NCBI GenBank assembly: GCA_014905635.1
Contig: JABVCE010000004.1
Span: 1,674,001 to 1,738,000 of the forward strand
DNA from: Scenedesmus sp. PABB004
Lineage: Eukaryota
DNA length: 64,000 nucleotides
Reading direction: 5' to 3'
The notes under the pieces were generated by a model. The model ran no database searches and was not told where the DNA came from. It was given only the letters and a program-made list of their open reading frames with translations. Positions 47,201 to 64,000 of this stretch are shown here, piece by piece. The position numbers and the translations under genes were made by a program. Position 1 is the first letter of the stretch, and each line of letters starts with the position of its first letter.

Positions 47201-50200
47201 CGATCGCGCCGCTGCCGAGCGTTGTGCACGACCTGGGCGCCGTCGCGGCGGCGCTGCGGCAGATGAGCCAGGCGCGGCACGTGGGCAAGGTCGTGGTGCG
47301 CGCTGCGCCCGCGGCCGTGCCGCAGCTGCAGCAGGCCCCGGGCGGCGGCGCGGTGCTTGTGGTGGGCGGCACCGGCACGCTGGGCTGCCTGATGGTCGCC
47401 TGGCTGGCGGAGCAGGGCGTGGCAAGCATTCCCATACTCAGCCGCACGGGGCGGCTCAGCCACGCGCTGGCCGAGCTGCTGGCCGGCAGCGCGGCGCACC
47501 AGGCGGCTGTCACTGTGCTCGCGTGCGACGCCGCGCGCGGCGCCGACCTGGACGCGCTGCGGCGGCTGCTGGCCGGCGGCGCGCCGCTGCTGGGTGTGCT
47601 GCAAGCGGGCGGCGTGCTCGCGGACGCAACGCTCGGCAGGCAGACCCTGGCCGGCGTGCGGCAGGTGGGCGCGGCGGCGGCGGGGGCGCACGGGGACAGA
47701 CAGATAGACAGATAGGGCGCAGCTGGCTGCGCTCCGTCGCCGCCGCTGACCCTCGGCCCGCCCGACCTGACCGCAGGTGTTTGCTCCCAAGCACGGCGCC
47801 GCCACGCGCCTGCAGCCGCTCTTGCAGCAGCACCCGGTCAGCCACCAGGTGCTGTTCAGCAGCGTTGCGAGCCTGCTGGGCGCGCCCGGGCAGGCCAACT
47901 ACGCCGCCGCCAACGCGGGCCTGGACGGGCTCGCGGGCGCGCTGTGCGCCGCGGGCCTGCCAGCGGTGTCGGTGCAGTGGGGCGCGTGGGCGGGCGGCGG
48001 CATGGCGTCGGCCGACGCGTCCACCGCGGCGCGCGTGGAGCGTCTGGGCATGGGCCTGATCGCCCCGGGGGCGGGCCTCGCCGCGCTCGAGGGCGCGCTC
48101 GGCCGCTTTGCGGCGCCCGGGCCGTCCGAGGGCGGGGCGGTGGTCGCGGCGGTGCCCTTTGTCTGGCGCCGCTTCCTGGCGCGCTTTGGCGGCGCCCCGC
48201 CGGCGCTCTTTGCGCGCGTCGCCCAGGAGGAGCTGGCCGCCGGTGCTGGCGGCGCGCGCCAGAGCCGCAGCGCGCGCAGCGCTGGTGTCACCGCTGCTGG
48301 TGTGGCCGCGCTGGTGGCCGACACCGTGGCGGCCGTGCTCGGCCCCGACGTGCCGCCCGATGAGCCGCTGATGGCGGCGGGGCTGGACAGCCTCGGCGCG
48401 GTGGAGCTGCGCAACGCGCTGCAGGTGCGCCCGCGCGCAAGCCAGCCAGCCGCTACACCGCGCCCCTTCCACCCCACACACCCGCTCTGCCCTACCCTGC
48501 CTCCGCCGCCGCTGCCGCCGCCAGGCGGCGCTGCCGAGCGGCAGCGCGGAGCTGCCGGCGACGCTGCTGTTTGATTACCCGACCATTGGCGCCGTCAGTG
48601 CCTTCATCGCGGCACAGGTGCGCAGGGCTCAGAGGGAAGGGCGCGGGCGGGCGGGCGTGACGCGTCGCCGCGCGGCCGGCGCGGTGTGCGCGCTTGGGCG
48701 GCAGGGGCTGCGACCACCTGCGCTCGCGGCCGCTGTCCACTCCAGGTCGCCACGCCCGAGGCTGCCGAGGCGCCAGCGGTTGCAGTGCCGGCCCCAGCGC
48801 CTGCGCCTGGCGCCGGCCTGCGCGGCGCGCTGGCGGCGCCACGGCCGCTGGTCGCCGTCGTCGGCGCGGCGGTGTGCAGCCCCGGCGGCGCGATCGACGC
48901 GGTCGTCGCGCGCGACGCCGTGGCGGCTGTGCCGCTCGCGCGCTGGGACTGGGACGCGCTGGCCGCCGGCACCGCCGCCGGCGCCGCGCTCCCGCCGCGC
49001 TTTGGCGGCTGGCTGGAGGGCGTGGAGCTGTTTGACGGCGCCGCGTTTGGCGTGAGCCCGCTCGAGGCGGGCCTCATGGACGCGCAGCAGCGCTTGCTGC
49101 TGGAGCTGTCGCTGCAGGCCCTGCACGGCGCCGCGGGGGCGAGCGGCGCGGCGGGCGTGCTCGACGCGGTGGCCGGCCCCGCCGCCGCCGCCTGCGTCGC
49201 CGTCGGCATCGCGAGCGCCGAGTGCGTCGCGCTGGCGGCCCGCGCCGCGCTGGCAGCCCGCCCGCGCGCGCGCGCGCGCGCGCTGCCGCCGCCGCCGCTG
49301 CCAGACCGGCCCACTCACGCGCCCCTGCCCCCGCGCCTGCGGCTGCAGGTACAACAACTGGCTGCTGCGGCGCACCGGCGCGGCGCCCAGCGCCTACGGC
49401 GCGACCGGCGGCGCGCTCAGCGTCGCCAGCGGGCGGCTCGCCTTCACGTTTGGCCTGCGCGGCGCGGCGCTGTCCATCGACACCGCCTGCTCCAGCAGCC
49501 TCGTCGCGGCGCACTTTGTCGCGGGGCAGCTGCGCGACGGCACCTCGCGCGCAGGCCTGGCGGCGGGCGTCGGCATCCTGCTGTCGCCCGAGCCGACGGC
49601 CATGTTCCAGAAGGCCGGCATGCTCGCGCCCGACGGGCGCTGCAAGACGCTCGACGCGGCCGCCGACGGCTACGTGCGCGCCGAGGCGGCGGGCGTGCTG
49701 CTGCTGGAGGCCCTGGGCGGCGCTCGCGCGGAGCGCGCGGCACCGCCGCTGGCGGTCGTGCTCGGCAGCGCGGTCAACCAGGACGGCCGCAGCAGCAGCC
49801 TCACCGCGCCCAACGGCCCGGCGCAGCAGGCCGTGCTGCGCGCGGCGCTCGCGGACGGCGGGCTCGCGCCGCGCGACGTCACGGGCCTGCAGCTGCACGG
49901 CACGGGCACGCCGCTGGGTGCGTGCTGTCGCGGCGCCGTGCGCGCGCGCCGCTGCCGCCGGTCTCCCCCATGCACTGACCGCCTCCGTGCGGCCTGCTGA
50001 CCCGCCGCTGCCGGCCGCCGCCCGCCGCCCGCCGCCCGCGTAGGCGACCCGATTGAGGTCGGCGCGGCCGCGGCGGTCCTGCTCGCCGGCCCAGGCCGCG
50101 CGCAGCCGCTGCTGGCAACGGCTGGCAAGAGCTGGGTCGGCCATGCGGAAGCGGCGGCCGGCGTGGCGGGCGTCGCGCACGCGCTGGCGGGGCTGCGGCA

Positions 50201-53200
50201 GCGCTCCGCGCAGGCGCTGCTTCACCTCACGGCACCCAACCCCCACTGCGGAGCAGCGCTCAGAGCCGCGCCGGCGCAGGGCCTGGCCGCGCCCTGGGCG
50301 CTGCCGCGCCAGGCGGGCGGCCTGCCGCTCGGCGGCCGCGGCGGCGGAGGCGGGAGCGGCGCCCTCACCACGGGCGTGAGCTCGTTCGCGTTCCAAGGTG
50401 GGGGCGGCGCGTGCGAGAGCGCGAGCGGGGCGCGCCGGCCGAGGCTGCTGCGCTCGCGCCTGCGCTAGCACGCGCCCGCTTGCCGCCGAGGCGCCCCGCC
50501 GCCTGCCCGCCCTGCCGCCGCCATCTCAAGGAACCAACGCGCACCTGCTGCTGACTGCGAATGGCGGCGGCGCCGCGGGCGGCGCGGCCGGCGCGGCCGC
50601 CCCGGCCGCCGCGCTGCCGTGGCAGCGCGCGCGCACCTGGCCGCTGCCGCCCGCGCACCTGGCGCTCGCGCATGTCGCGAGCGCGGGCGCAGGGCGCGTG
50701 GTGCTGCAGGCGCAGCTGGGCGCGCCCGGCCTGGCGTTCCTGCGAGACAACGTCGTGCTGGGGCAGGCGCTGCTCCCCACGGCGGCGCTGCTGGAGCTGG
50801 GCGCTGCGGCGGCGGCCGCGCTGCTGCCGCCGGCGCCCGGCGCCGGCGCCGGCGCCGCCGGCGCGCTGCGCGCCTGCCTCGCGCAGGTCGTCATGGGCGC
50901 GCCGCTGCGCCTCGACGGCGGCGGCGGCGGCGCGACGCTGACTGTCGGCGTGACGCTGGCCAGCGGCGCGGTGGAGGTTCAGACGGCCGCCGGCGCCGGC
51001 GGCCGGCTGCGGACGCACATGGCAGCGCGCACCGGGGCGGCCGGCGGCGCCGACGCCGGCGGCCGGGTGGCGCTTCCGCGCGAGGCGCTGCCGCCGATCC
51101 CTGCACCGCTGCGGGCGCTGCTGGCCGGCCAGCACGCGGCACTGCTGCTCGCTGTGGCGGCGGCGCCCTGCGTGTCGGCCGCGGCGCTTGTGCCCGCCGC
51201 CGGTGTCGGCGAGGCCTTCGTGCTCCACCCAGCGCTGCTGGAGGCGGCGCTGCAGACAGAGGCACTCGCCGCACCGCAGGGCGGTGCGGCCCCGGGCGGC
51301 GTGCAGGTCCCCGCCACCATCGGCGCGGTGCTGCTCGGCGGCGGCGGCCGCGCGGCCGCCGCGCACGAGCTGCTGGTGTCCAGCCTGCCGCAGCGCGCGG
51401 CCGGCCGCCCCGCCACCGGCACGTGGCTCCACGGCGCCAGCGCCGGCGGGGCGGCGGGCGCGCTCCTCGACGCCGAGTTTCGACCGCTCCGCGGCGACGC
51501 CGGCGGCGCTGCCGCGGGCGCCGCCGCCGCCGTGCCGGCGGGCGAGGCCGACGCGGCCGCGGCCAGCCCGCTGCTGGAGCTGGGCGAGGCGGAGCGCCGT
51601 GTCTACCTGACGGCCCAGATCAGCGCAGAGGTGTGGCTGCGCTGTAATGGGGCTGCGCGCGCGCGCGCCGCGCGGTGCGCGCCGCCGCCTCACGGCCGCC
51701 GCCTCGCGGCCGCCGCCTCGCGCGCGCGCACCGCAGGTCCGCAACATGCTGGGGCACCACGTGCCGCCGGACGAGCCGCTCATGGCGGCGGGGCTAGACA
51801 GCCTCGGCGCGATGGAGCTGCGCAGCAGCCTGGCGGCGGCGCTCGGCGTCAGCCTGCCGGTGACGCTGCTGTACGACGCGCAGACGATCGGCCAGCTCGC
51901 CGCGTACATCAGCGAGGCCCTCGCCGCCAGCGCCGCCGCGCCGGCAGAGCCGGGCAGCGAGCCGGGCGACGGCGACGCGCGCGGCGGCGGCGCCGAGCCG
52001 GCGGCAGGTGCGCCGGCCGGCCGAGCGAGCTGCTCAAGCTGCTGCGCGGCGCGCCGCCGCCGCGGCCGCTCTTCCTGGCGGCGCCGGGCGTGGCCAACGC
52101 GCAGTCGGCCTACTTTGCGTTCAGCGCCTGGCTGTCCTGGAGCGACCAGCCGATCTATGTGCTGGAGAAGGACAACGACCTCAGCATCGCCGAGCTCGCG
52201 GCCGCCAACGTGCGCGACATCCTGCTGGTGCAGCCCGAGGGGCCGTACCTGATCGGCGGCCACAGCTACGGCGGCGCCGTCGCGGTCGAGATCGCGGGCC
52301 GCCTCGAGGCGGCGGGGCACACCGTGGGCCTTGTGCTGGTGCGCGCGCCGCGCGGGGGCGCGGGGGGGCGGCGGCGCGCGCACGCGACGCACGCACGCAC
52401 GCGTACACACACGCGCGCATGCACCTGTCTGCCCTGCCCGTCTGCCGTGTCCGCAGATCATGGACACGCCCAAGAAGGAGCAGATCCGGGCGCTGCAGCC
52501 CAGCGCAGAGGCGGCGACAGAGGAGGATTGCCTGGAGCTGCTCGAGATGATCCTCGGTGCGTGCCGCTCCATGGGGGCAGGCGCCGTCGCGGCTGACTGC
52601 CCGGCGCGGCCGGCGCGCTGCGGGACCACGGGGCCGCCCCGCGCGCTCACGCCGCGCCGACGCCGCGCCGCCGCCCGCCGCCAGGCGCGCTCGGGCGCGA
52701 CGCGGTGGGCCTGGGCGCGGGCATGGCGCACCCGCGCGAGAGCGAGGAGTGGCAAGGCATGACGCTGCGCGAGAAGTGAGAGCCTGGGCGGCTGCGCGGC
52801 CGCGGCGCGCTGTGTGCTGCTGCCCGGCTGCCGCCGCCGAGCGCCGCGTGGCCGCGGCCGCGGCGCGCAGGTACGAGTTCTTCGCGCCCATCTGGCGCGT
52901 GATGCGGGACGACAACATGACCGTGGACGAGGTGGCGCGCCAGGTCGAGGCCGTCGCGCTCGCGGTCAAGCAGGGCAGCGCCGTCAGCGACCTGCGCCAC
53001 CACACCTTCACCACGCGCCTGCGCGGCGCCGAGGCACGCGCGCGCGCGCCGCGGGCTGCGTGCCGCCGGCAGCCCACGCCCAGGCGGCGGTCGCTGACCG
53101 CTCCTCCCGCCCCCGCCGCCTGCTGCTGCTGGGCAGGTGGTGTATTTCAGGGCCTCCACCCCGGGCGCGTGCGACTACGTGAACGACGGCCGCGCGTGGC

Positions 53201-56200
53201 GGCACAGCCACGGCACCTGCTGGGCGACGCTCGCCGACGACCTTACCGTCGTGGACGTGCCGGGCGACCACTTCAGCCTGCTGCGCCAGGCGCGGCGGCC
53301 GCGGACGCGCGCGCGGCGCCGCAGCACGCACAGCACTCGCAGCGCGGCGCAGCGGCGCGGCGCAGCGGCGCGGCGCAGCGGCGCGGCGCAGCGGCGCGGC
53401 GCGGCCGACCGCGCCGCTGCGCCGCGCAGGACCCGGCCGACATGGAGCCGCTGCTCGCGATGCTGAAGGTGAAGCTCGGCGCGTGGGGCTGGGCGGAGGC
53501 CATCCGCCGCGACGGCCGGCCGGGGCAGTGGCACGGCGCCGGCGCGGCGGAGGCGGCGGCGGAGCTGGACGACTACCTGCAGCGCATGGGCGTGCGGTGC
53601 GACGCGCGCCGCGCGCGCGGAGCCGGGCGCCGATCGCCACGCCGCCGCGCCGCGCGGGCTCACACCGTGCGCGCCCGCGCAGGGACGGCGCCGTGCGCGC
53701 GCGCCTCGCCGCGGCGCTGCCGGTGGCCGACCTGGAGGAGGTGTCCGCGACCGCCGCGCACGCGCGCCCCGCGCAGCTCATCCGCGCGCTGCCGCGGCCG
53801 GCCGGCGCGCCGCCGCACGACGGCGCGCTGCCGCCGCTCGTGGTCGTGCCCGACGCCGAGGCGCCGCTGCCGCACCTCACGGCCGCGCTGGAGCGCCTGG
53901 CGCGGCCCGTGTTTGTGCTGGGCATGCCGCCGGCCAGGCAGATGGCGCAGCTGCGCAGCGTGCCAGCACTCGCGCGCCTCTTCTGCGCCGCCGTGCGCGC
54001 GCGCGCGCCGCGGGGGCCGCTGCTGCTCGCCGGCATCGGCGCCGGCGGCGTGGTGGCGCACGAGATGGCGGTGCAGCTGCAGCGCGACGGCGAGCAGGTG
54101 CGAGGGGACAGCGGCGCCCGAGGCTCACTCCGCGCGGCGCAGCTCCGAGCGCGCCGGCGCCCTGCCGCCGCCGCGCCCCAGCCACCCGCCCGCTGCCTCG
54201 CGCCGCGGCTCAGGTCCCGGTGCTGCTGCTGCTGGAGAACGCGCCCCTGCGCGAGGCGGCCGACCTCACGGCGGCGCCCTGGTTCACGCTGTATCACCTG
54301 CTGTCGGACGCGCGCCCCGACGTCGACATGCGCGCCTGGGCCGCGCGCGCCAAGGGCCTCGCCGCGGGGCCGGCCGGCGTGGAGCGCCAGCTCGACGCCG
54401 CGGCCGCGCTCTGCCCGCGCGGCATGGACGGCGGCGCGTGGGAGGTCGCGCTCGCAGACGCGCTGCGCGGCGCTGCGCGCGCGGGGTACCAGTGGGAGGA
54501 GCGGCTCAGCAGCTGGGTGGCGCTGTGGCAGCTCCTCGCCGCCGCGCCACGCGACCAGGCGGGCGCGGGGGGCGCGCCGTCGTCCCCAGACGGCGGCGCG
54601 CCGCCGCCGCCGCCCCCAGACGGCAGCGAGGCCGGCAGCGGGCCCAGCCCGCCCGGCAGCGACGCCGCCGGCGGTGAGGGCGGCGGCGGCGGCAGGGCTG
54701 GGGGCGTGCCTGGTCTGGACGAGTTCCTGCTGGAGATGTCGGCGCTCGAGGCTGACCCGGGCGCGCAGCTCGACGCCGCGGCGGCGCACCGCCCGCCGCA
54801 CATGAGCGCCGCCGACTGGGACGCCGAGGTCGGCAAGGTGAGACGCGAGACGCACGGCGCGTGCGCCGGGCGCGCGGGCGGCACGGCGCCGCTGACTGGC
54901 CGCTGCCGCCGCCGCCGCTGCCGTCACTCACGCCGCGCGCCCGGTGCTGCCCGGCGCCGCGCGCCAGCTCCTGGCCCAGGTGAGCTACCTGAAGGCCATC
55001 TGCGCCAGCTACGTGCCCGCCCACGTGCTGCGCCCCGGCGCGACGAGCGCCGTGCTGTGCCACGGCGCGGCGCACAAGTCGCTGCGCCACGTGCTCGACG
55101 GCTGGGCCGCCGGCGCGCTGCGCCCGGTCGCGCAGCTCGTGCAGCCGCTGCGCATGCTGACCTGGCGCGACACCCACCCGAGCGCGCGCGACCTCGACGC
55201 GGCGCTCGACGCGGCGGCGCGCGGCGCGTCGAGCGCGGCCGCAGCGCGCGCCGCGCTGCTGCGCGGCCTGCCCGCGCGCGCGCTGCCTCCGGGCGCCGAG
55301 GTCAGCGGCGGCGCCAGTGCCAGCGGCGGCGGCGTGAGCGTGACGGCGCTGAACCGCTTCTGCACGGACAGCGCCGTGCAGCCGCACGTCGAGGAGGCGG
55401 CCGCGCTGGCGGCGACCGCGGCGCTGCCGCCGGGCACCGACATGACGCGCGAGGACGTGGACGCCGCGCACACGGCCGCGCACGCGGCCGCGCTTGCGGC
55501 GGTGCAGCACGCGACGCTGCTGAGCACGCTGCCGCTGTGGCTGGTGCCCGGCGAGACGGGCGCCTGCAGCGCCGCGCTCGCGCACGCCGCGTCGCTGCTG
55601 CCGATGCCCGCGTACGGCCTGGCGCTGCCGGACGGCGACGACGCGCGGCGCCGGCTGCCGGACGCCGCCGGCGGCGACCCCGCGGCCTGGCTGCCGGGCC
55701 TGACCGCGGCGTGCGTGGCGCCGCTGCTGACGCTCCAGGCGAGCGGGCCGTTTGTGGTGGTCGGGTGCGGCGCGTTCAGCTGCATGCTGGCCGCCGCGAT
55801 GGCGCGCGAGCTGGAGCACGAGCTGCAGCGGGGCGTGGTGCTCGTGCTGCTCGACGGCCCGCCCGTGCCGCCGGCGGCGGTGGCGCTGCCCGACCCGGGT
55901 GCGTGTTCCGTGTTTGCGCGCGCGCGCGCGCGCGCCTGGCCCCGGCGCGCGCCGCCACCTGGCCCCCCCGCTCACGCGGTTACCACCCTGCGCACCCACA
56001 CACTCGCCCCGCAGGCATCTATGGTCTGTACCAGCTCGCGCGCGACAGCGGCACGCTGCCGGCTGTCACGGCCGACGGCTTGGTCGCCCAGCCGTTTGCC
56101 GCGTTTGCGGCGGAGCTGTCCGCGCAGCTGGCGGCGGCCATGGCGGCCGCGGGCGTCGCGGCGGAGCTCGTCCCCGCGCCCGCGGCGCAGGCGGGCGGGC

Positions 56201-56676
56201 CCGGCGGCGAGCTGCTGCTGCTGCCGGCGCCGGCCGAGCCGCGCGCGGCTGCCGCGCTTGAGGCGGCGCTGGAGGAGGTGGCGGCGGCGCGCTTCGGCGC
56301 GCTCCTCGCGGCCAGCGGCGGCGCGGGCGGCGCGCCGGCCGGCCCCGACGCGGCCGGCGGCGACGCGGGCGCGGCGACCGCGCGGCTCGCGGCCAACGTG
56401 CGGCGCATGCTGCGCGCGTGCCGCCTCGCGCGCGGGCTGTGGTCGCCCGCGCGGCACGCGCCAGAGTTTGCCTACTGCGGCCGCGCCGTGCTCGTGCTGA
56501 GCGACGACGCGGAGGGCCGGGCCTTCCTGCTCGCGGCGCGCGAGAGCTGCCAGGGCGAGCTGAGCCTCGTGCCGACGGCGCTCGCGCACGGCGAGGTGCT
56601 GACGGGCGACGACGAGCAGCAGGTCCTGCTCGTTGCACTGGTGGACGGGCTGATGGAGATGCTGGCGCTGCTGTGA
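1..56676 (+). CDS. Giant modular type I polyketide synthase, AT-less (trans-AT type), 5'-truncated; >=10 modules, then TE and two TE-like domains; ~68 introns
   Basis: Repeating KS motifs ([13 protein letters not shown], GHxEPAAG), DH (HxxxGxxxxP, DxxxQ), ER ([22 protein letters not shown]), KR (TGGxGx[11 protein letters not shown]) and ACP (GLDSL). Exons can be joined through GT/GC-AG introns up to TGA at 56674-56676, except at ~5 one-base frameshifts. No AT motif (GHSxG plus HAFH/YASH) was seen. Confidence 0.95.
3530..9545 (+). other. PKS module M2: KS-DH-ER-KR-ACP-ACP
   Basis: [10 protein letters not shown] (~4078), HGTGT (4508), GHAEPAAG (4741); [12 protein letters not shown] and LDALLQ; ER ~6860-7710; KR ~7755-8450; ACPs [12 protein letters not shown] (~8812) and [12 protein letters not shown] (~9306). 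Confidence 0.92.
6874..8230 (+). repeat. ER-KR cassette, copy in M2 (family A)
   Basis: Near-identical nucleotide sequence to the copies in M3, M4 and M5; offsets 6274, 5554 and 5800 nt between successive copies, taken from matching antisense ORFs. Confidence 0.92.
9600..15245 (+). other. PKS module M3: KS-DH-ER-KR-ACP
   Basis: DTACSSSL (~10345), HGTGT (10771), [22 protein letters not shown] and [12 protein letters not shown] and KR in exon 11514-15011; [17 protein letters not shown]. Confidence 0.92.
13058..14670 (+). repeat. ER-KR cassette, copy in M3 (family A)
   Basis: Near-identical to 18604-20220 and 24404-26020. Confidence 0.92.
15340..20825 (+). other. PKS module M4: KS-DH-ER-KR-ACP
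   Basis: DTACSSSL (~15956), HGTGT (16382), [22 protein letters not shown] and [12 protein letters not shown] and KR in exon 17356-20466; ACP GLDSL at ~20598. Confidence 0.92.
18598..20294 (+). repeat. ER-KR cassette, copy in M4 (family A)
   Basis: Near-identical to 24398-26094 over ~1.7 kb. Confidence 0.92.
20960..26535 (+). other. PKS module M5: KS-DH-ER-KR-ACP
   Basis: DTACSSSL (~21685), HGTGT (22111); [14 protein letters not shown] and [12 protein letters not shown] and KR in exon 23141-26359; ACP GLDSL at ~26315. Confidence 0.92.
24398..26094 (+). repeat. ER-KR cassette, copy in M5 (family A)
   Basis: Few substitutions versus M4 (e.g. KRDSW vs KRDIW, WLARQG vs WLAGQG). Confidence 0.92.
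26660..31400 (+). other. PKS module M6: KS-DH0 (inactive)-KR-ACP, no ER
   Basis: KS triad intact (DTACSSSL ~27348, HGTGT ~27774, GHS|E). The DH site reads [14 protein letters not shown] (no His) and PVLAAALQ (no Asp). No ER motifs. [33 protein letters not shown] at 31141. Confidence 0.9.
31495..37205 (+). other. PKS module M7: KS-DH-ER-KR-ACP
   Basis: DTACSASL (~31967), HGTGT (32384), [22 protein letters not shown] and FDAWLQ; ER ~34795-35620; [19 protein letters not shown] at ~36960. Confidence 0.9.
37320..42935 (+). other. PKS module M8: KS-DH-ER-KR-ACP
   Basis: DTACSSSL (~38025), HGTGT (38567), GHTEPAAG (38823); [14 protein letters not shown] and [12 protein letters not shown] ~40770-41610; [19 protein letters not shown] at ~42709. 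Confidence 0.9.
40154..42547 (+). repeat. ~2.4 kb linker-ER-KR direct repeat, copy 1 (M8; family B)
   Basis: Almost identical to 45846-48239 (offset 5692), including intron 41973-42084. Confidence 0.93.
43060..48617 (+). other. PKS module M9: divergent KS-DH-ER-KR-ACP
   Basis: NTACSSSL (~43733), HGTGT (44141), GHLEGAAG (~44406), [11 protein letters not shown] (~44710); [14 protein letters not shown] and [14 protein letters not shown] near-identical to M8; ACP GLDSL at ~48380. Confidence 0.9.
45846..48239 (+). repeat. ~2.4 kb linker-ER-KR direct repeat, copy 2 (M9; family B)
   Basis: Only a handful of visible substitutions versus copy 1 (e.g. ELDPAV vs ELDLAV, FARVA vs FAHVA). Confidence 0.93.
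48840..51930 (+). other. PKS module M10: KS-DH0-ACP (no KR, no ER)
   Basis: DTACSSSL (~49479), HGTGT (~49896), GHAEAAAG (~50139); DH-like [13 protein letters not shown] (His to Asn) and [10 protein letters not shown] (Asp to Glu); [14 protein letters not shown] at ~51791 follows with no Rossmann motif between. Confidence 0.88.
52021..53490 (+). other. Thioesterase domain with intact Ser-Asp-His motifs
   Basis: [23 protein letters not shown] (GHSYGG at 52258-52275); [19 protein letters not shown] (~53250-53283). Confidence 0.9.
53347..53400 (+). repeat. Intronic tandem repeat, 13-nt unit gcgcagcggcgcg, ~4 copies
   Basis: Seen directly, inside intron 53290-53429. Confidence 0.7.
53790..55230 (+). 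other. Second thioesterase-like alpha/beta-hydrolase domain lacking the nucleophilic Ser
   Basis: [48 protein letters not shown] align by eye with TE1 [48 protein letters not shown]. Confidence 0.75.
55520..56676 (+). other. Third thioesterase-like domain lacking the GxSxG Ser; C-terminus of the PKS
   Basis: [49 protein letters not shown], and terminal [12 protein letters not shown]. Confidence 0.7.
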
Positions 56677-56930: not shown

Positions 56931-58106
56931 TCACGCCCCTGCGGCGCTGCGCGGCGGGCGCGTGAGGGAGATGATCCGATAGCCCTCCCGATAGTCGGCG
57001 TGCAGCTCGTCCACGGGCACCGCGGAGACCTCAAACCCCGCGCGCGCCGCCTTGGCCTCGAAGCTGTGCTCGCCGTACCGCCTCACGCGGTAGCAGATCC
57101 ACACCGGCGGCGGCGGCGCCGCTCCCGCCCCGCCGCCGCCGTCGGCGGCGGGGCAGAGCTGCGCAAGGCTGGCCAGCAGCTCGTCGTAGTGCTGCGGCTC
57201 GTACAGCACGTCGGCGGCGACGATCGCGTCCCACCGCGGCTGCTCCGGCTGCTCCGGCTGCCCCGGCGGCTGCTGCTCCAGCTCCGGCTGCTCCGGCTGC
57301 TCCGGCTGCTCCGGCTGCTCCGGCTGCTCCGGCTGCTCCGGCTGCTCCGGCTGCTCCGGCTGCTCCGGCTGCGGCTGCCGGCCGATGGCGCCGGCGGGCG
57401 TGCCCCACATGTAGGGCGTCACGCGCGGGCGCACCGCGCAGCGCGCCGCGTTGAGGCCGACGTTGACCTCCGTGAGCGGCGTGATGTGGGCCAGGTCAGT
57501 CAGCACCACGTCCGCGCCCGCCAGCGCCAGCACGATGCCCAGCTGCCCCGTGCCGCACCCGAGCTCCAGCACGCGCGGCGGCGCGCCGCCCGGCGGCGCG
57601 GACCACGGGCCCAGCGGCTTGGCGCGCAGCAGGTACTCACCTGCGCCGGGGGGGGGGGGGGGGAGCGTCGGGCGCAGCCGCCGCCGCGCCGTGCCGCCGC
57701 CGCCGCTGCGCGCTGCGCCGCGCCGCTGGCGGCGGCCGCCGCGCCGCACCCAGCACGAAGCCGCTCTGCCAGACCACGAGGCCGACGTTTGGAAACGCGG
57801 AGTCGTAGCCGCCGTCTGCGGGGCCGCCGTAGGCCTCCTCTGGGTGTGCCATCGCGTACTCCTGCAGCTCCTCCTTGGCCTCATCGTACACGCGGCCCTC
57901 CTCGGGGCGCTGCTTCAGCTGCGCGCGCCGCCAAGAGAGCGGCGGGGGTCGGCGCCGGGGGGGGGGGGGCGTGGTCGGCGGCGCTGCGCGCGGCGCGCGC
58001 TGCGCGGGCCGACGAGGCGGCGCACCTGCAACACCACGTCTCCGACCTGGAACAGCGCGCTGACGGACGTCTCGTCGTCATCGTCAAAGAGCATGGATAG
58101 CAGCAT
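56931..58106 (-). CDS. SAM-dependent methyltransferase, Methyltransf_16/METTL21-like protein lysine methyltransferase; 3 exons (58106-58026, 57918-57750, 57640-56931)
   Basis: VGLVVWQSGFVL, VLELGCGTG (motif I), VVLTD (post-I), WDAIVAADVLY (DxxY); GT-AG introns in consistent phase. Confidence 0.88.
57241..57372 (-). repeat. Coding 9-nt tandem repeat encoding (QPE)n, ~10 consecutive units plus 2
   Basis: tgctccggc repeated on the + strand; translates as QPEQPEQPE between the YMWG motif and motif II of the methyltransferase. Confidence 0.95.
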
Positions 58107-58943: not shown

Positions 58944-61900
58944 TCAGGGCTCGAACGACGGCGCCTGGCGCTTGCCGCCCCAGCTCGCCTCGTAGAGCAG
59001 GCGCGGCAGGAGGTCCCGGTAGGGGTCTGCCTGGCGCATGCGCAGCAGGTAGCCCAGCCCGTCCTCGACCTCGCCCTTCACGCGCTCGTACAGCGCCTGG
59101 CAGCCCGCCCGGTCGGCCGCGAGGGCGGGGTGCGTGGGGATGGGGGCGCGGAAGACAAAGTAGGTGCGGGAGGGGAGGTTGGGCGTGAAGAAGCCAGGCT
59201 GCGGGGGCGCGCCGGCGGGGGGGGGGGGGTGAGATTGCGTGTGTGCGTGCGTGTGTGTGTGTGGGGGGGGGGGGGGGGGTGAGGCAACGGGCGAGCGAGC
59301 GGCGGCGGCGCGCGCGCACCGAGCCAAACGCCTCGACGTCCTCCATCGTCGCGTTGACGCCGACGCGCGCGCGCGGGATGGCCGCGAGCCGCGCCACGTC
59401 CTCGGGGCTGCGCTGCCAGGGCAGGCGGAAGGGCAGGCCCTCCGGCAGCGCCGGCAGCAGCCGGCCGAGCGCGTCGACCTCCTCTGCGCTGAGGTGCGTG
59501 GTGATGGCCTCGTCCACGCCCACCGCGGCAAAGGGCACGATCGTGGCGCCAAACTTGGCGGCCATGCGCACAAACTCGGCCTTGCCCGGCCAGATGAGCT
59601 TGTAGGCCTCGCCCTTGCGCTTGAACGCCTGGCGCAGGCGGTGGCCGCGGCGTGGGGGCGCGTCGGCACGCGTGGGCGCGCGCGCGTGCGACCGCGTGCG
59701 GCCCCGGGCCCATGTGTGCGCTGCGCTGCGCTTCGCGCTGCGCGCTGCGGTGTGGCGCGCGCGGCCCCACCTCGCGCGCGCCGCCGGGGTAGAGCAGCAC
59801 CACCTCGCCCGCCGCGAGCAGGGCGTGCATGTTCTTGCCCGCGACCGGCACCGCGCCGTACGTGCTCAGCAGCCCGCTGAACGCGGCCGCGCCGGCCGCG
59901 CCGTCCTCCTTGTCGCCGCCGCCGCCGCGCGCCGCGCCGTTGCTGCGCGCCGCCGCGGCGAGGCCCTCGGGCCCGGCAAAGACGATCGGGTGCGCCAGGC
60001 CGCGCGGCAGCACGCCCAGCTCGTCCTGGAAGGCCTGGATCATGGGGTACATGTCGCCGGCAAAGAACTGCGGCGCAGTCGCACGGGGAGTAGGGTTGAG
60101 TAGGGGCAACACGCGCGGCGCGTGGGCGGGCCAGGCCCCCCGCGCGGCGCGGGCGGGGCCGCGGCGCCAGGCCGCGGCGCCGCCGCCGCCGCCGCCGCGC
60201 GCCTGGTGGTTTCCGATGAGCAGCACGGGGCGGTCGTGCACGGGCACGCCGGCGAGGCCGCGCACGACGCGGCCGTCGGGCGCGGTGCTGTAAAACACGG
60301 GCGAGGTGAGGCGGTTGATGGTCGACACAAAGCCGCCCGCGTCGAGCTCCAGCTCGCGCCGCGTGGGCAGCTGGATGGGCACCGCCTTGCCGAACGACGC
60401 GCCGCCGCCGTCGGTCGCGGTCACGCTCGGCCGGCCGTTGCTCATGCGGCGCTCGGTGATGTAGAAGCCCTCAGCCTGCCGGGCGCGACGGGGGAGGGGC
60501 GGGCAGTGGTGGTGTGCGCGAGGGGGGCGGCGCCGAGCCGCCATCCCCCAGCCGCGCGCCCCCGCCGCGCAGCGCAGCCTCCTCCCCCGCCGCGCCCAGC
60601 TCAACCGCCGCGCACCTCCAGCAGCTGCACCAGGTCCACGCCCGCCTCCTGCAGCAGCGCGTGGCCGCGGTCGGGCAGCACGCGCGTGCGCGCACGCGGC
60701 AGCGACTTGCCCTGCGGGCGGCGGCGGCGGCGGCGGCGGCGCGTGGGCGCCCGCCCCCGGCCCGGCCCCGGCCGCGGGGCGCGCGCGCAGGCAGGCGGCC
60801 CGGCGGCCGGCCCGCGCGCGCACCAGGCGCTCCGCCTCGTCCTTGCTGGGGATGAGCAGGTCCCGCTCGCCGCTAAGCACCAGCACGCGCTGCTGCACGC
60901 TGCGCAGCCGCGGCGCCACCCACGCGCTGCCCTGCTCGAGCAGCTTGAGCCGCCACGCCAACGTCTCGGGCGGCAGCACGAGGCGCAGCGCCGCCAGCTG
61001 CGGCGCGAGACCGACCAGGCCCTGCGCGCGCGGTGCGGCGCGGGCGCGGCGGCGCGGCGGCGCGCGTCGGCCGCTGCGTCCCGCGCCCGTGCTGTGCGCC
61101 GCGCCGCGCGGCAGGCGCGCTCACGTAGAGCAGGTCTGAGCCCTGCTGCAGCAGCGGCGCGGAGCGGTCGACGTCGTTCAGCGCCATCGAGATGGGGTTG
61201 GACAGCACCGGCGCGAGCACAAAGGGCAGGAACTTGTACACCTCATCAGGCAGCTGTCGCGACCCGGGCGGCGGGCGGCAGACGGTGGTTAGGCGAGCGC
61301 GCGCGCGAGCGCACGGGGCCCAGGCGCGTCGCTGGCCGCCGCCGGTGCGCGCCGCGCGCGCCTGCGTGAGGAGCGGGCCGGCGGCGGGCCAGACGCTCTT
61401 GTCGAAGCTGGTCGCGGGGTTGACGAGCACCAGGCGGTCGACGTAGTCGCCCAACCGAGACGCGAGCGCGAGGCAGAGCAGGCCGCCAAACGACTCGCCC
61501 AGCAGGTACACCGGCCGCCCGCCGTCGCTCGCGTCCAGCTCGGCCTTGATCAGCGCCTGGCGGCCGCGCCGGCCGCGGCGCGGCGGCGGTCAGGTCAGGG
61601 CGACGCGGCGGCCGGGGCGGTGCGGCGGGCCTGTGCAGCGGCCGCCCGCTGGCGGCGCCGCGCCGCCCCCGCCGCCCTGCGCGCCGCCGCCACCGTCCGT
61701 CCCGCTCGTTGCTGGGCGCGCGCGCGCGCGCACCGCCACGGTGTCGACGAGCTCCTCAAAGCTGCTGCGGTCGGTGCGCGGGACGATGAGGCAGCGCAGG
61801 TCGAACGCCGCGGTGAGGCGCGGGAACTGGCGGTACGCGGCGAGGCCGCTGCCGTCAATGCCAGGCATGTAGTACATCAGCGGCAGCTCCGCCGCGGGCG

Positions 61901-62513: not shown

Positions 62514-63056
62514 GGCTGGCTGGCGGGCTGGCGCGCGCGCGTGCGGGCTGCTCCGCTGCTGCGGAGCGCGCAAAGTGTGGGTGCGGCGGTTGCGCCAACC
62601 GCGTCGAGCACCGCGTTGAAGGAGAGCCGGCGCGGCGAGTGAGCGTGGGCAGAGCGGCGAGGCGCGCTCGGGCTGAGCGGTTTTCCCTGCGCCCGCGCTG
62701 CGCCTGCCCCGCGCCGCGGTCGCTGATCAATCCCGGAGGCGCGCAGAGGAGAGGCACTGGCGTCGCAATCCGCCTCCGCGCCCGCGCTGCCATTCGAGGC
62801 GCCCCTCACCAACCTCGCCGCCTGGGCCCCCGCGCGCCCCCGGCGCCTCGGGCGCGGTGCCCTGAGCGCTGAGACGCCGGCGCAGCCGCTGCGGGGCTGC
62901 CGGCGCGGCGTGGGGGGCGCCGGCGCGTGCTGCTCTTGAGAGCATGGCCTCGCGCCCTCCCGAGGGGTGGGCGCCGTCCTGAGGAGGAGCCTGAGAAGGC
63001 CCCCCGGCGCCCGCACGGGCCCGGCAGGCAGCCCGGCCGCGCCGCAGCGGCAGGCG
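62514..63056. promoter_or_regulatory. Divergent intergenic region (putative bidirectional promoter plus 5' UTRs)
   Basis: ~540 nt between head-to-head start codons of the ELT/PES-like gene and the WNK gene; no specific element identified. Confidence 0.4.
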
Positions 63057-64000
63057 ATGGAGGCGCCCACCGCCAACGGCGGGCCCGAGCCCCCCGGCCC
63101 GCCCCCGCCGCCCCCGGAGGACGAGCCGGAGGAGCAGGAGGTCCGGGCCGTGGAGACCGACCCGTCGCGGCGCTACACGCGGGTGCGCCGCGTGCCGGCA
63201 CGGCGCCGCCGGCAGCAGCGAGCGGCAGCCGGGGGCAGGCGCGCGGCGCGGGCGGCGCCGGCCGGCCCGCGGCAGGCGCCCTGCCGCGCCAGCGGCAGTA
63301 GCGCGCGTTGCCTGCGGGCGGCGCGCGGGGGCCGGCCCGCCCGCGCGGCGCGCAGCGCGCCGACGCCGCCACCGCGCCGCGCGCCGCGCGCCGCCGCCAC
63401 CGCGCGCGCAGTACGACACCGTGCTCGGGCGCGGCGCGTTCAAGACGGTGTTCAAGGCCTTTGACGAGGCGGAGGGCATCGAGGTCGCGTGGAACCAGGT
63501 GAAGGTCAACGACCTCGCCAACTCGCCGGCGGAGCGGGAGCGGCTGTTTGCCGAGATCCGCGTGCTCAAGCAGCTGAAGCACAAGAACATCATGAGCTTC
63601 TACGACTCCTGGCTCGACCAGAAGAACCTCACCGTCAACTTCATCACCGAGCTCTTCACGTCCGGCACGCTGCGCCAGTGAGCGGCCCCCGCGGCGGGCG
63701 CGGCGGGCGCGAGGGCGGGAGGGACGGCGGGCGAGAGGAGAGGGAGCCGGCAGCAGCAGGCGCCGCCCAGCCCCAAGCGCGCGGGCGGCTGACGCGGCGG
63801 TGCGGCCGCCGCGCGCGCAGGTACCGCAAGAAGCACAAGATGATTGACGAGCAGGTCCTCAAGCGCTGGGCGTGGCAGATCCTGCAGGGCCTCGTCTACC
63901 TGCACGCGCACGAGCCCGCCATCATACACCGCGACCTCAAGTGCGCACCCGCCCGCACCCGCAACCCGCGCCCGCGTCGGCCGGGGCGGGGCTGGCCCAC
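63057..64000 (+). CDS. WNK: WNK (with-no-lysine) family Ser/Thr protein kinase, 5' part (exons 63057-63182, 63412-63677, 63821-63940)
   Basis: [37 protein letters not shown] (catalytic Lys in subdomain I, none in subdomain II), [20 protein letters not shown]. Confidence 0.95.

Follow-up and report, generated by a model that had tools for sequence, protein, structure and literature searches.

A conserved pair of thioesterase-like units, probably fused behind an intact thioesterase, at the release end of a giant polyketide synthase of Scenedesmus sp. PABB004

Giant polyketide synthases (PKSs) that are highly reducing and lack acyltransferase (AT) domains are conserved in green algae, as described in parts of two publications (PMC7073580; PMC4661987). 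In Chlamydomonas reinhardtii such an enzyme, PKS1, is needed for zygospore maturation according to a section of PMC7073580, where a figure legend also mentions domains marked '?', of unknown function. The release end of a synthase of this type is encoded in a stretch of 64,000 nucleotides from Scenedesmus sp. PABB004 (assembly GCA_014905635.1, contig JABVCE010000004.1, positions 1,674,001 to 1,738,000 of the forward strand), referred to below as the window. The synthase shares with Chlamydomonas PKS1 the lack of AT domains, the many fully reducing modules and the C-terminal thioesterase (TE). Behind this TE, here called TE1, lie two further TE-like units, TE2' and TE3', both of which have Gly in place of the nucleophilic Ser in the window. 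As judged from sequence comparison, the two units form one conserved didomain of ~700 residues, which is probably fused to TE1 in the window and stands free in several relatives.

Tandem TE domains are known at the end of some nonribosomal peptide synthetases (NRPSs), among them the lysobactin, arthrofactin and Pseudomonas lipopeptide synthetases; both TEs keep their Ser in these proteins, and both are enzymes. The likeness to the present locus lies in the row of several TE-fold domains at the release end of a megasynthase. The locus differs in that three units follow each other, two of them lack the nucleophile found in each NRPS TE, and the extra pair is a module that is also found free. Megasynthases also keep non-catalytic pseudo-domains, such as psiKR and psiME of animal fatty acid synthase (FAS) and the KS0 and vestigial AT docking regions of trans-AT PKSs. 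The didomain resembles them as a duplicated fold without its residues that is kept under selection beside a working copy, and we know of no pseudo-domain described at the TE position. KS0 is present in algal PKSs according to part of PMC4661987.

The TE of animal FAS (PF00975; PDB 2px6, 4z49, 1xkt) has the alpha/beta-hydrolase TE fold assigned here to all three units. It is the best solved relative by sequence of both TE1 (2.1e-8) and TE2' (2e-9), and its large helical lid is also found in TE2'. In contrast to the FAS TE, TE2' has Gly and Glu and lacks the His, whereas TE3' of the window combines Gly, Asp and His with an elbow that is one residue longer, G-x-[SG]-x-x-[GS]. The TE of mycobacterial Pks13 transfers acyl chains to trehalose, using its Ser. 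This domain (PDB 5v3w) gave a weak but specific match to TE3' of P0028, one of the free-standing relatives (residues 472-562, E 5.5e-4 to 7e-4; structural Z 18-19), which is a lead for a possible transfer role in the Ser-type relatives and not a sign of membership in the Pks13 family.

The earlier note on this DNA had found no familiar counterpart for a terminus made of an active TE and two inactive ones. In the literature searched, likewise, neither this didomain nor a TE with two nucleophile-less TE units behind it is described; an earlier mention is possible in the original PKS1 work or in the figure of PMC7073580. New here are the conserved didomain, its stand-alone relatives, TE2' as an old pseudoenzyme, the lineage-limited loss of Ser in TE3' and the TE fold seen in models of relatives.

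The assignment of the host gene to the PKS1 type rests on several lines of evidence. The G+C content is 76-82% throughout the window, and with such a composition all six frames contain long open stretches, which have little meaning alone. By codon-position GC (third minus second position), a single coding frame at a time stands out on the forward strand, and this frame changes every few hundred bases, which points to a spliced eukaryotic gene. In a Pfam scan of 35 translated open reading frames (ORFs) of this strand, matches to ketosynthase (KS), dehydratase (DH), enoylreductase (ER), ketoreductase (KR) and carrier-protein families recur from 1 to ~52 kb, and no match to the AT family was found at E<=1e-5 in the same translations, which cover ~52 kb of PKS coding sequence. 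The gene begins upstream of the window. Many KS-DH-ER-KR-ACP modules (ACP, acyl carrier protein), no AT and a C-terminal TE are the features of green-algal giant trans-AT highly reducing PKSs, and the gene appears to be a giant, spliced, AT-less member of this kind. Its exons were modelled by dynamic programming with codon log-odds trained on the Pfam-matched stretches, which gave ~84 exons and ~83 introns with a median intron of 108 nt and donors that are mainly GTG[CA]G. The model places a false in-frame intron at 56398-56466, where relatives show coding sequence, and it is therefore used as a rough guide only. The features of the window are collected in Table 1.

TE1 has the residues of a working thioesterase. 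Its elbow, GHSYGG, is the single match of a degenerate pattern for which 0.01 matches were expected by chance, and the exon of the N-terminal half matches PF00975 with E 3.9e-14 and 53.9 bits (gathering cut-off 26.4). The same exon aligns with human FAS TE in such a way that GHSYGG falls on GYSYGA. Nearer the C-terminus, the six best PDB matches of exon G are pikromycin (Pik) TE chains, in which dvpgdhf aligns with VPGDHF of the exon, at a weak E of 0.22. The nucleophile in G-x-S-x-G and the His after strand 8 are thus present, and the Asp expected after strand 6 is assigned by its place after the strand, within LVL|IMDTP across the 52338|52457 splice. TE1 also resembles both halves of P0028 (2.4e-5 and 5.5e-6, blastp in a small local database). 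Since TE1 is the sole unit here with a full Ser-Asp-His set and the ability to form an acyl-enzyme, it would be the unit that performs chain release. The earlier note had listed GHSYGG, an Asp and GDH as the active set of TE1, followed by roughly 900 residues with two more elbows, GIGAGG and GCGAFS; this agrees with the PF00975, FAS and Pik TE comparisons, all three elbows lie where it had placed them and in frame with the codon-position GC signal, and the spliced tail after TE1 comes to ~890 residues.

The first unit of this tail, TE2', is recognised directly. Its exon I matches PF00975 with 39.0 bits and E 1.4e-9, above the gathering cut-off, and P0028 matches the same family in two stretches with 74.7 bits and E 1.6e-20. 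When residues 52-153 of P0028 are aligned with FAS TE (2e-9), the elbow Gly falls on the catalytic Ser. This Gly is found in all seven proteins that cover the position, and also in L001, a metagenome contig discussed below, while the acid position is Glu in 8/8 covering rows. No conserved His occurs past the last strand, and a Ser-Asp-His triad is consequently missing from the unit. The AlphaFold2 model of P0028, built from an 11-sequence alignment (predicted local distance difference test, pLDDT, 79.7; predicted template modelling score, pTM, 0.78), places Gly136 between strand 130-135 and helix 138-151 and Glu163 after strand 156-162, with no His after the last strand. The structural alignments of P0028 made with VIA-align span residues 409-725 and hardly cover TE2', which weighs against a firm structural assignment; the fold of TE2' is read from sequence matches and the predicted order of strand and helix, and the evidence for the fold of the whole domain is weaker. 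On its residues TE2' is an old pseudoenzyme in every relative that covers it. The lid of TE2' carries, at ~54520-54700, a Pro/Gly/Ser/Ala-rich insert of ~50-60 residues, which is missing from low-GC relatives; similar inserts of varied length occur in other GC-rich relatives.

For TE3' the fold had to be traced through relatives. A profile of the window's exon K and four close relatives finds solved TE domains at E 1.5e-6 and FAS TE at 3e-6. Among relatives taken singly, P0009 (36.6 bits) and P0033 (27.8) pass the threshold of PF00975, P0004 (22.3) fails it and P0006 has no match. P0007, a protein of 381 residues that is 70% identical to TE3' of the window over the matched region, yielded an AlphaFold2 model with pLDDT 84.9 and pTM 0.84, in which Gly158 lies between strand 152-157 and helix 159-176; the model superimposes on TE structures with Z 20.3 and a root-mean-square deviation of 3.1 A over 248 residues. 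The model of P0028 agrees with this. Its best Foldseek matches are human FAS TE (3e-10), and its residues ~410-725 align with TE domains in VIA-align at Z 21.7 and 3.1-3.5 A over 243-249 residues. In its TE3' unit the places of the classical triad are taken by Ser539, which lies between strand 533-538 and helix 540-555, by Asp566, which follows strand 560-565, and by His697, which follows strand 688-693.

Two results tell against this assignment: exon K of the window has no Pfam match at E<=1, and P0007 alone has no significant sequence match in the PDB (best E 1.5). Because neither gives a significant match by itself, the fold of TE3' rests on the profile and on the models of relatives, which together indicate a TE-type alpha/beta-hydrolase fold. 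The claim in the earlier note that the tail holds two further TE-fold paralogues with Gly at the nucleophile is borne out in this way, by PF00975 for TE2' and by profile and models for TE3'; so is its expectation that the downstream regions would model as alpha/beta-hydrolases, since the models of the relatives match TE domains at Z 20-22 in the TE3' region.

In the window TE3' has the elbow GCGAFS (55763-55780), with Gly at the nucleophile, Asp in LLDGPP and His in AHGEVL, so that the triad is incomplete by its Ser. In an alignment of 30 rows the nucleophile column holds Gly in 17, the window included, and Ser in 13. The Asp column has Asp in 26/27, with Asn in P0014, a Ser-type protein. The His column has His in 15/19, and the four rows without it lie in read-through or misaligned tails; by eye, the His is replaced by Ser in two proteins of the Gly clade, P0021 and P0038. 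The 30 rows (285 columns, elbow column kept) were also placed in a quick maximum-likelihood tree, which separates a mostly-Ser group (12 Ser, 1 Gly) from a mostly-Gly group (16 Gly, 1 Ser) with a branch support of 97. The elbow state changed at least 2-3 times on this tree, and the window lies inside an all-Gly clade of seven with a support of 100. TE3' thus lost its nucleophile in one large lineage and mostly kept Asp and His. The earlier note had spoken of two dead TEs. This description fits TE2', which has neither Ser nor His in any covering sequence, and it applies to TE3' in only a part of the family.

The elbow of TE3' shows a further regularity, in that Ser and Gly appear to change places between the nucleophile and the residue three positions on: G-x-S-x-x-G is found in 11 of the 13 Ser rows and G-x-G-x-x-S in 13 of the 17 Gly rows. 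This may only reflect a demand for small residues, and it tracks phylogeny. Separately, the Cys of a motif R-E-[SA]-C-x-G (ARESCQG in the window, ~56490-56510), directly ahead of the final TE3' strand, is kept in nearly all relatives of both types, P0006 being an exception; by its place in the fold this Cys is probably far from the active site.

The retained Asp and His raise the question whether TE3' has kept enzymatic activity in this lineage. The unit could combine its Asp and His with a direct nucleophile, either water or a hydroxyl of the substrate, or turn to another residue, such as the Ser three residues past the elbow position, for hydrolysis, transesterification or cyclisation, and the terminus would then hold two catalysts. 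The persistence of both residues in the window and in most other sequences, the conservation of the fold and of the pocket-forming lid, and the switching elbow pattern would suit such an activity. We nevertheless regard it as improbable. The family as a rule works by covalent catalysis through the elbow Ser, and the residue at Nu+3, one turn into helix C, should face away from the site. P0021 and P0038 of the Gly clade have, by eye, Ser in place of the His, and the Ser-type P0014 has Asn in place of the Asp. The Ser/Gly pattern is also in keeping with a simple demand for small residues and tracks the phylogeny.

The relatives of the tail show that its two units belong together. With exon K as the query, HMMER was run in full against 1.84 billion representative proteins and returned 43 matches at E<=1e-3; 20 of these reach E<=1e-10, and 6 reach E<=1e-30. 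ORF-style fragments, derived from transcripts or from genomes that are GC-rich and contain introns, make up most of the set. Complete relatives of ordinary composition are P0028, P0047 (725 aa), P0048 (726 aa) and P0039 (701 aa), encoded on contigs of 2.2 kb to 1.2 Mb. These four lower-GC stand-alone proteins, 40-86% identical to each other, share their starting Met, and the N-terminal 18 residues are near-invariant (M1 T2 E5 Q7 D10 R11 Y12 L13 E14 E15 M16 G17 V18), forming a peptide M-T-x-x-E-x-Q-[DE]-[IL]-D-R-Y-L-E-E-M-G-V that is kept in exon H of the window, after TE1. An exon edge would not be expected at the ATG in four lineages so far apart, so the Met is taken as the true start and the didomain as free-standing in these lineages.

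Residues 318-1202 of the spliced window sequence are colinear with residues 8-725 of P0028, at 30-44% identity in each of eight segments, of which the N-terminal peptide is the best conserved (44%), and the window and its relatives end at the same C-terminus. The two halves of P0028 are paralogues of each other (blastp 6.8e-10, small local database). Taken together, TE2' and TE3' are one evolutionary module. The earlier note had described two further units, and this is where we depart from it: they are no independent additions and make up one conserved didomain, free-standing in four relatives. The high pTM of the two-domain model of P0028 hints at a fixed arrangement of the units, and a complex prediction of its TE2' half against its TE3' half, run without controls, scored 0.00 and is evidence neither way.

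Searches beyond this set added little. No relatives of the didomain were found in prokaryote genomes with the patterns used, and the ESM Atlas gave generic bacterial TE clusters only. One didomain alignment found no relative among metagenome contigs, and another yielded only L001. A search with P0004 among proteins of 1165-3325 aa for longer fused forms found none, which is weak evidence, and exon I found among longer proteins only P0049, a read-through ORF without TE1.

L001 is a metagenome contig of 2.5 kb and 60.6% GC that carries exons I, J and K, with two introns at the same places and the same GIGAGG; it stops short of the TE1 junction. Compared with L001 by the Nei-Gojobori method, the window gives ratios of nonsynonymous to synonymous substitution (dN/dS) of 0.12 for exon I (138 codons), 0.28 for exon J (204) and 0.21 for exon K (281). 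With dS at ~1.5-1.75, near saturation, these ratios are rough, and pN is still far under pS. The pattern indicates purifying selection on the didomain, for which the earlier note had proposed a check, and argues that the tail is not decaying. A decaying, functionless relic of duplicated TEs might be suspected from the lost catalytic residues, the long low-complexity inserts and the weak or absent Pfam scores of TE3'. Besides the low dN/dS, this reading has to contend with 884 colinear residues conserved against relatives that are only ~30% identical, with ~2.7 kb of exons free of stops and frameshifts and intact in codon periodicity, and with the conserved intron positions and shared C-terminus. 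We consider it highly improbable.

The didomain stands alone in its complete relatives, and the junction with TE1 in the window therefore deserves close attention. We think it probable that the two are joined through a GC-AG intron at 53290-53429 and form a single polypeptide. The 11 codons of the GDH stretch in exon G have an exon-like coding log-odds of +4.74, and the 60 codons after it in the same frame score -31.2. The stretch 53290-53429 scores as non-coding in all three frames, like seven neighbouring introns, and its flanks score as coding. Inside it lies a perfect tandem repeat (53342-53402; unit GCGCGGCGCAGCG, 13 nt, 4.7 copies) with a period that is not divisible by three. Of the 39 occurrences of the acceptor sequence, CCGCGCAG, the exon model uses 13 as acceptors, and the donor GCGCGG is the commonest donor, GTGCGG (15/83), with C for T at +2. 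GC-AG introns are a minor class of U2-type introns and make up ~1% of introns. Solved Pik TE chains have ~18 or more residues beyond the aligned GDHF (aligned to 265 of 283), and exon H alone supplies residues for such a C-terminal helix in TE1 before it continues into the N-terminal peptide of the didomain. The short exons, exon H included, gave nothing usable against Pfam and the PDB apart from the weak Pik TE matches of exon G. It is the combination of the exon-like GDH score, the intron-like stretch, the repeat, the splice signals and the supply of the helix that makes the GC-AG intron preferred.

Several observations count against a single polypeptide. There is no GT within 53270-53440 and hence no canonical donor at the junction. 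GC donors are rare in the exon model, which has 8 among 83 at a penalty of -3, 2 at -6 and none at -100, and when the model is limited to canonical donors it takes the GT at 53257, which deletes the GDH motif. This donor was rejected, as it removes an in-frame, well-scoring stretch of 11 codons. An in-frame ATG lies at 53442, just inside exon H, and relatives show the didomain as a separate protein, with a conserved Met at the equivalent place in 4/4 of the lower-GC proteins. Algal megasynthases are, moreover, divided among several polypeptides in some species, as part of PMC7073580 describes. Two genes would account for these points: the PKS would end with TE1, and the didomain, on a bicistronic transcript or one of its own, would be translated from ATG 53442 and act in trans as in the lower-GC relatives.

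The arrangement as two genes meets difficulties of its own. An unspliced TE1 would gain a tail of 58 codons with an intron-like score and the 13-nt repeat, and would be without the helix that comes after GDHF in solved TEs. The supposed start lies 12 nt past a consensus acceptor with a branch-like site, CCGAC, upstream, and the spacer is too short for a 3' untranslated region and a promoter. Compared with the stand-alone proteins, the window has ~37 extra residues before the motif common to both, which look like the C-terminal helix of a TE. Two genes are thus in our judgement rather unlikely. The earlier note had taken TE1 and the tail as one system; the preferred GC-AG join agrees with it, and the lack of a canonical GT donor leaves the reading as separate genes with the modest weight just given.

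On balance we lean, with moderate confidence, towards a PKS release end in which the active TE1 is fused to a didomain of pseudo-TE and TE-like units with an accessory role. TE1 would release the chain. The didomain may go back to a release or transfer enzyme, TE3', that acted in trans and depended on a dead partner, TE2', and it may dock by its N-terminal peptide. After its fusion behind a cis-acting TE1, the Ser of TE3' could have become dispensable in this lineage. The present didomain would then be a non-catalytic partner of TE1 whose retained pockets bind the long reduced chain or an acceptor, or alternatively a scaffold for the end of the synthase. The history by replacement is a conjecture. 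A more specific proposal, which is tentative and more doubtful than the general one, is that the didomain serves algal giant PKSs widely as a conserved release partner that has so far gone undescribed. In lineages with Ser it would act in trans as an enzyme, docking via DRYLEEMGV and passing the chain to an acceptor, e.g., a wall polymer, much as the Pks13 TE does with trehalose. In the lineage of the window, fused behind a cis TE1, it would have become a non-covalent holder of product or acceptor that steers TE1 away from hydrolysis to ester-forming release.

The PKS modules are closely alike, with ER and KR matches near-identical in score across four successive modules, which suggests recent module duplication. 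Between the ACP and TE1 (51960-52030) there is no frame-compatible GT donor. This join may be a GC-AG intron of 47 nt whose donor, at 51979, is GCGCGG as at the junction of TE1 and the didomain; the other candidates are a GT at 51904 that would trim the tail of the ACP and an assembly frameshift within the low-complexity linker. Downstream, the next gene lies on the opposite strand, so that the stop at 56676 is a plausible gene end; the relatives share the end residue.

Table 1. Features at and around the release end of the synthase (positions in the window)
Feature	Position	Strand	Basis or remark
Last PKS module before the TE region (KS ~48.6-50.0 kb, DH ~50.5-51.6 kb)	48575..51630	+	Pfam ketoacyl-synt 5.6e-12, PKS_DH_N 1e-8, PS-DH 9.6e-6
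ACP exon, LDSLG motif	51737..51978	+	Frame-1 translation; 3' end and join to TE1 uncertain
TE1 exon C, N-terminal half, elbow GHSYGG (52258-52275)	52026..52338	+	PF00975, FAS TE, pattern match
TE1 exon D, opens with IMDTP (catalytic Asp), start of lid	52457..52556	+	Splice pair GTGCGC...CGCAG
TE1 exon E, lid	52685..52775	+	Weakest coding signal
TE1 exon F, lid	52871..53033	+	3' end uncertain: 52982 (GT), 53033 or 53039 (GC)
TE1 exon G, last strands and GDH stretch with catalytic His	53137..53289	+	Pik TE matches, coding score
Probable GC-AG intron (donor GCGCGG, acceptor CCGCGCAG), alternatively intergenic spacer	53290..53429	+	Intron-like scores, 13-nt repeat
Exon H, putative last TE1 helix, linker, N-terminal motif of the didomain; ATG 53442	53430..53596	+	Frame, splice, alignment
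TE2' exon I, N-terminal half, elbow GIGAGG (54032-54049), Gly for Ser	53683..54097	+	PF00975; motif and intron position same in L001
TE2' exon J, VLLLLEN (Glu at Asp position), large helical lid with PWF, GYQWEE and LDEFLL motifs	54214..54837	+	Alignment of relatives
Exon K, C-terminal end of TE2' without His, linker with ALNRFC strand, N-terminal half of TE3', GCGAFS, VLLDGPP	54968..55898	+	43 relatives
Exon L, TE3' lid and C-terminal half, ALAHGEVL (His), shared C-terminus ...LMEMLALL, stop	56015..56676	+	Alignment to relatives
Methyltransf_16 (lysine-methyltransferase-like) gene	56931-57914	-	2e-13; convergent with PKS end
Abhydrolase_1 gene fragment	60873-61589	-	E 3.8e-7; ~4 kb downstream of the PKS
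Protein kinase gene	62995-63998	+	Continues beyond the window

The algal giant synthase is linked to resistant zygospore walls, according to part of PMC7073580, and a conserved, selected and catalytically depleted pair of TE units gives a concrete handle on the release chemistry of the green-algal giant PKSs. If the didomain is merely a structural appendage, the result is a useful annotation of ~900 residues that would otherwise be labelled unknown, and nothing beyond. Otherwise, the didomain would add the TE position to the places at which megasynthases keep pseudo-domains. The natural variants of the family, with Ser or Gly and fused or free, allow comparison, and the didomain marks the place where the hand-off of the product is probably decided.

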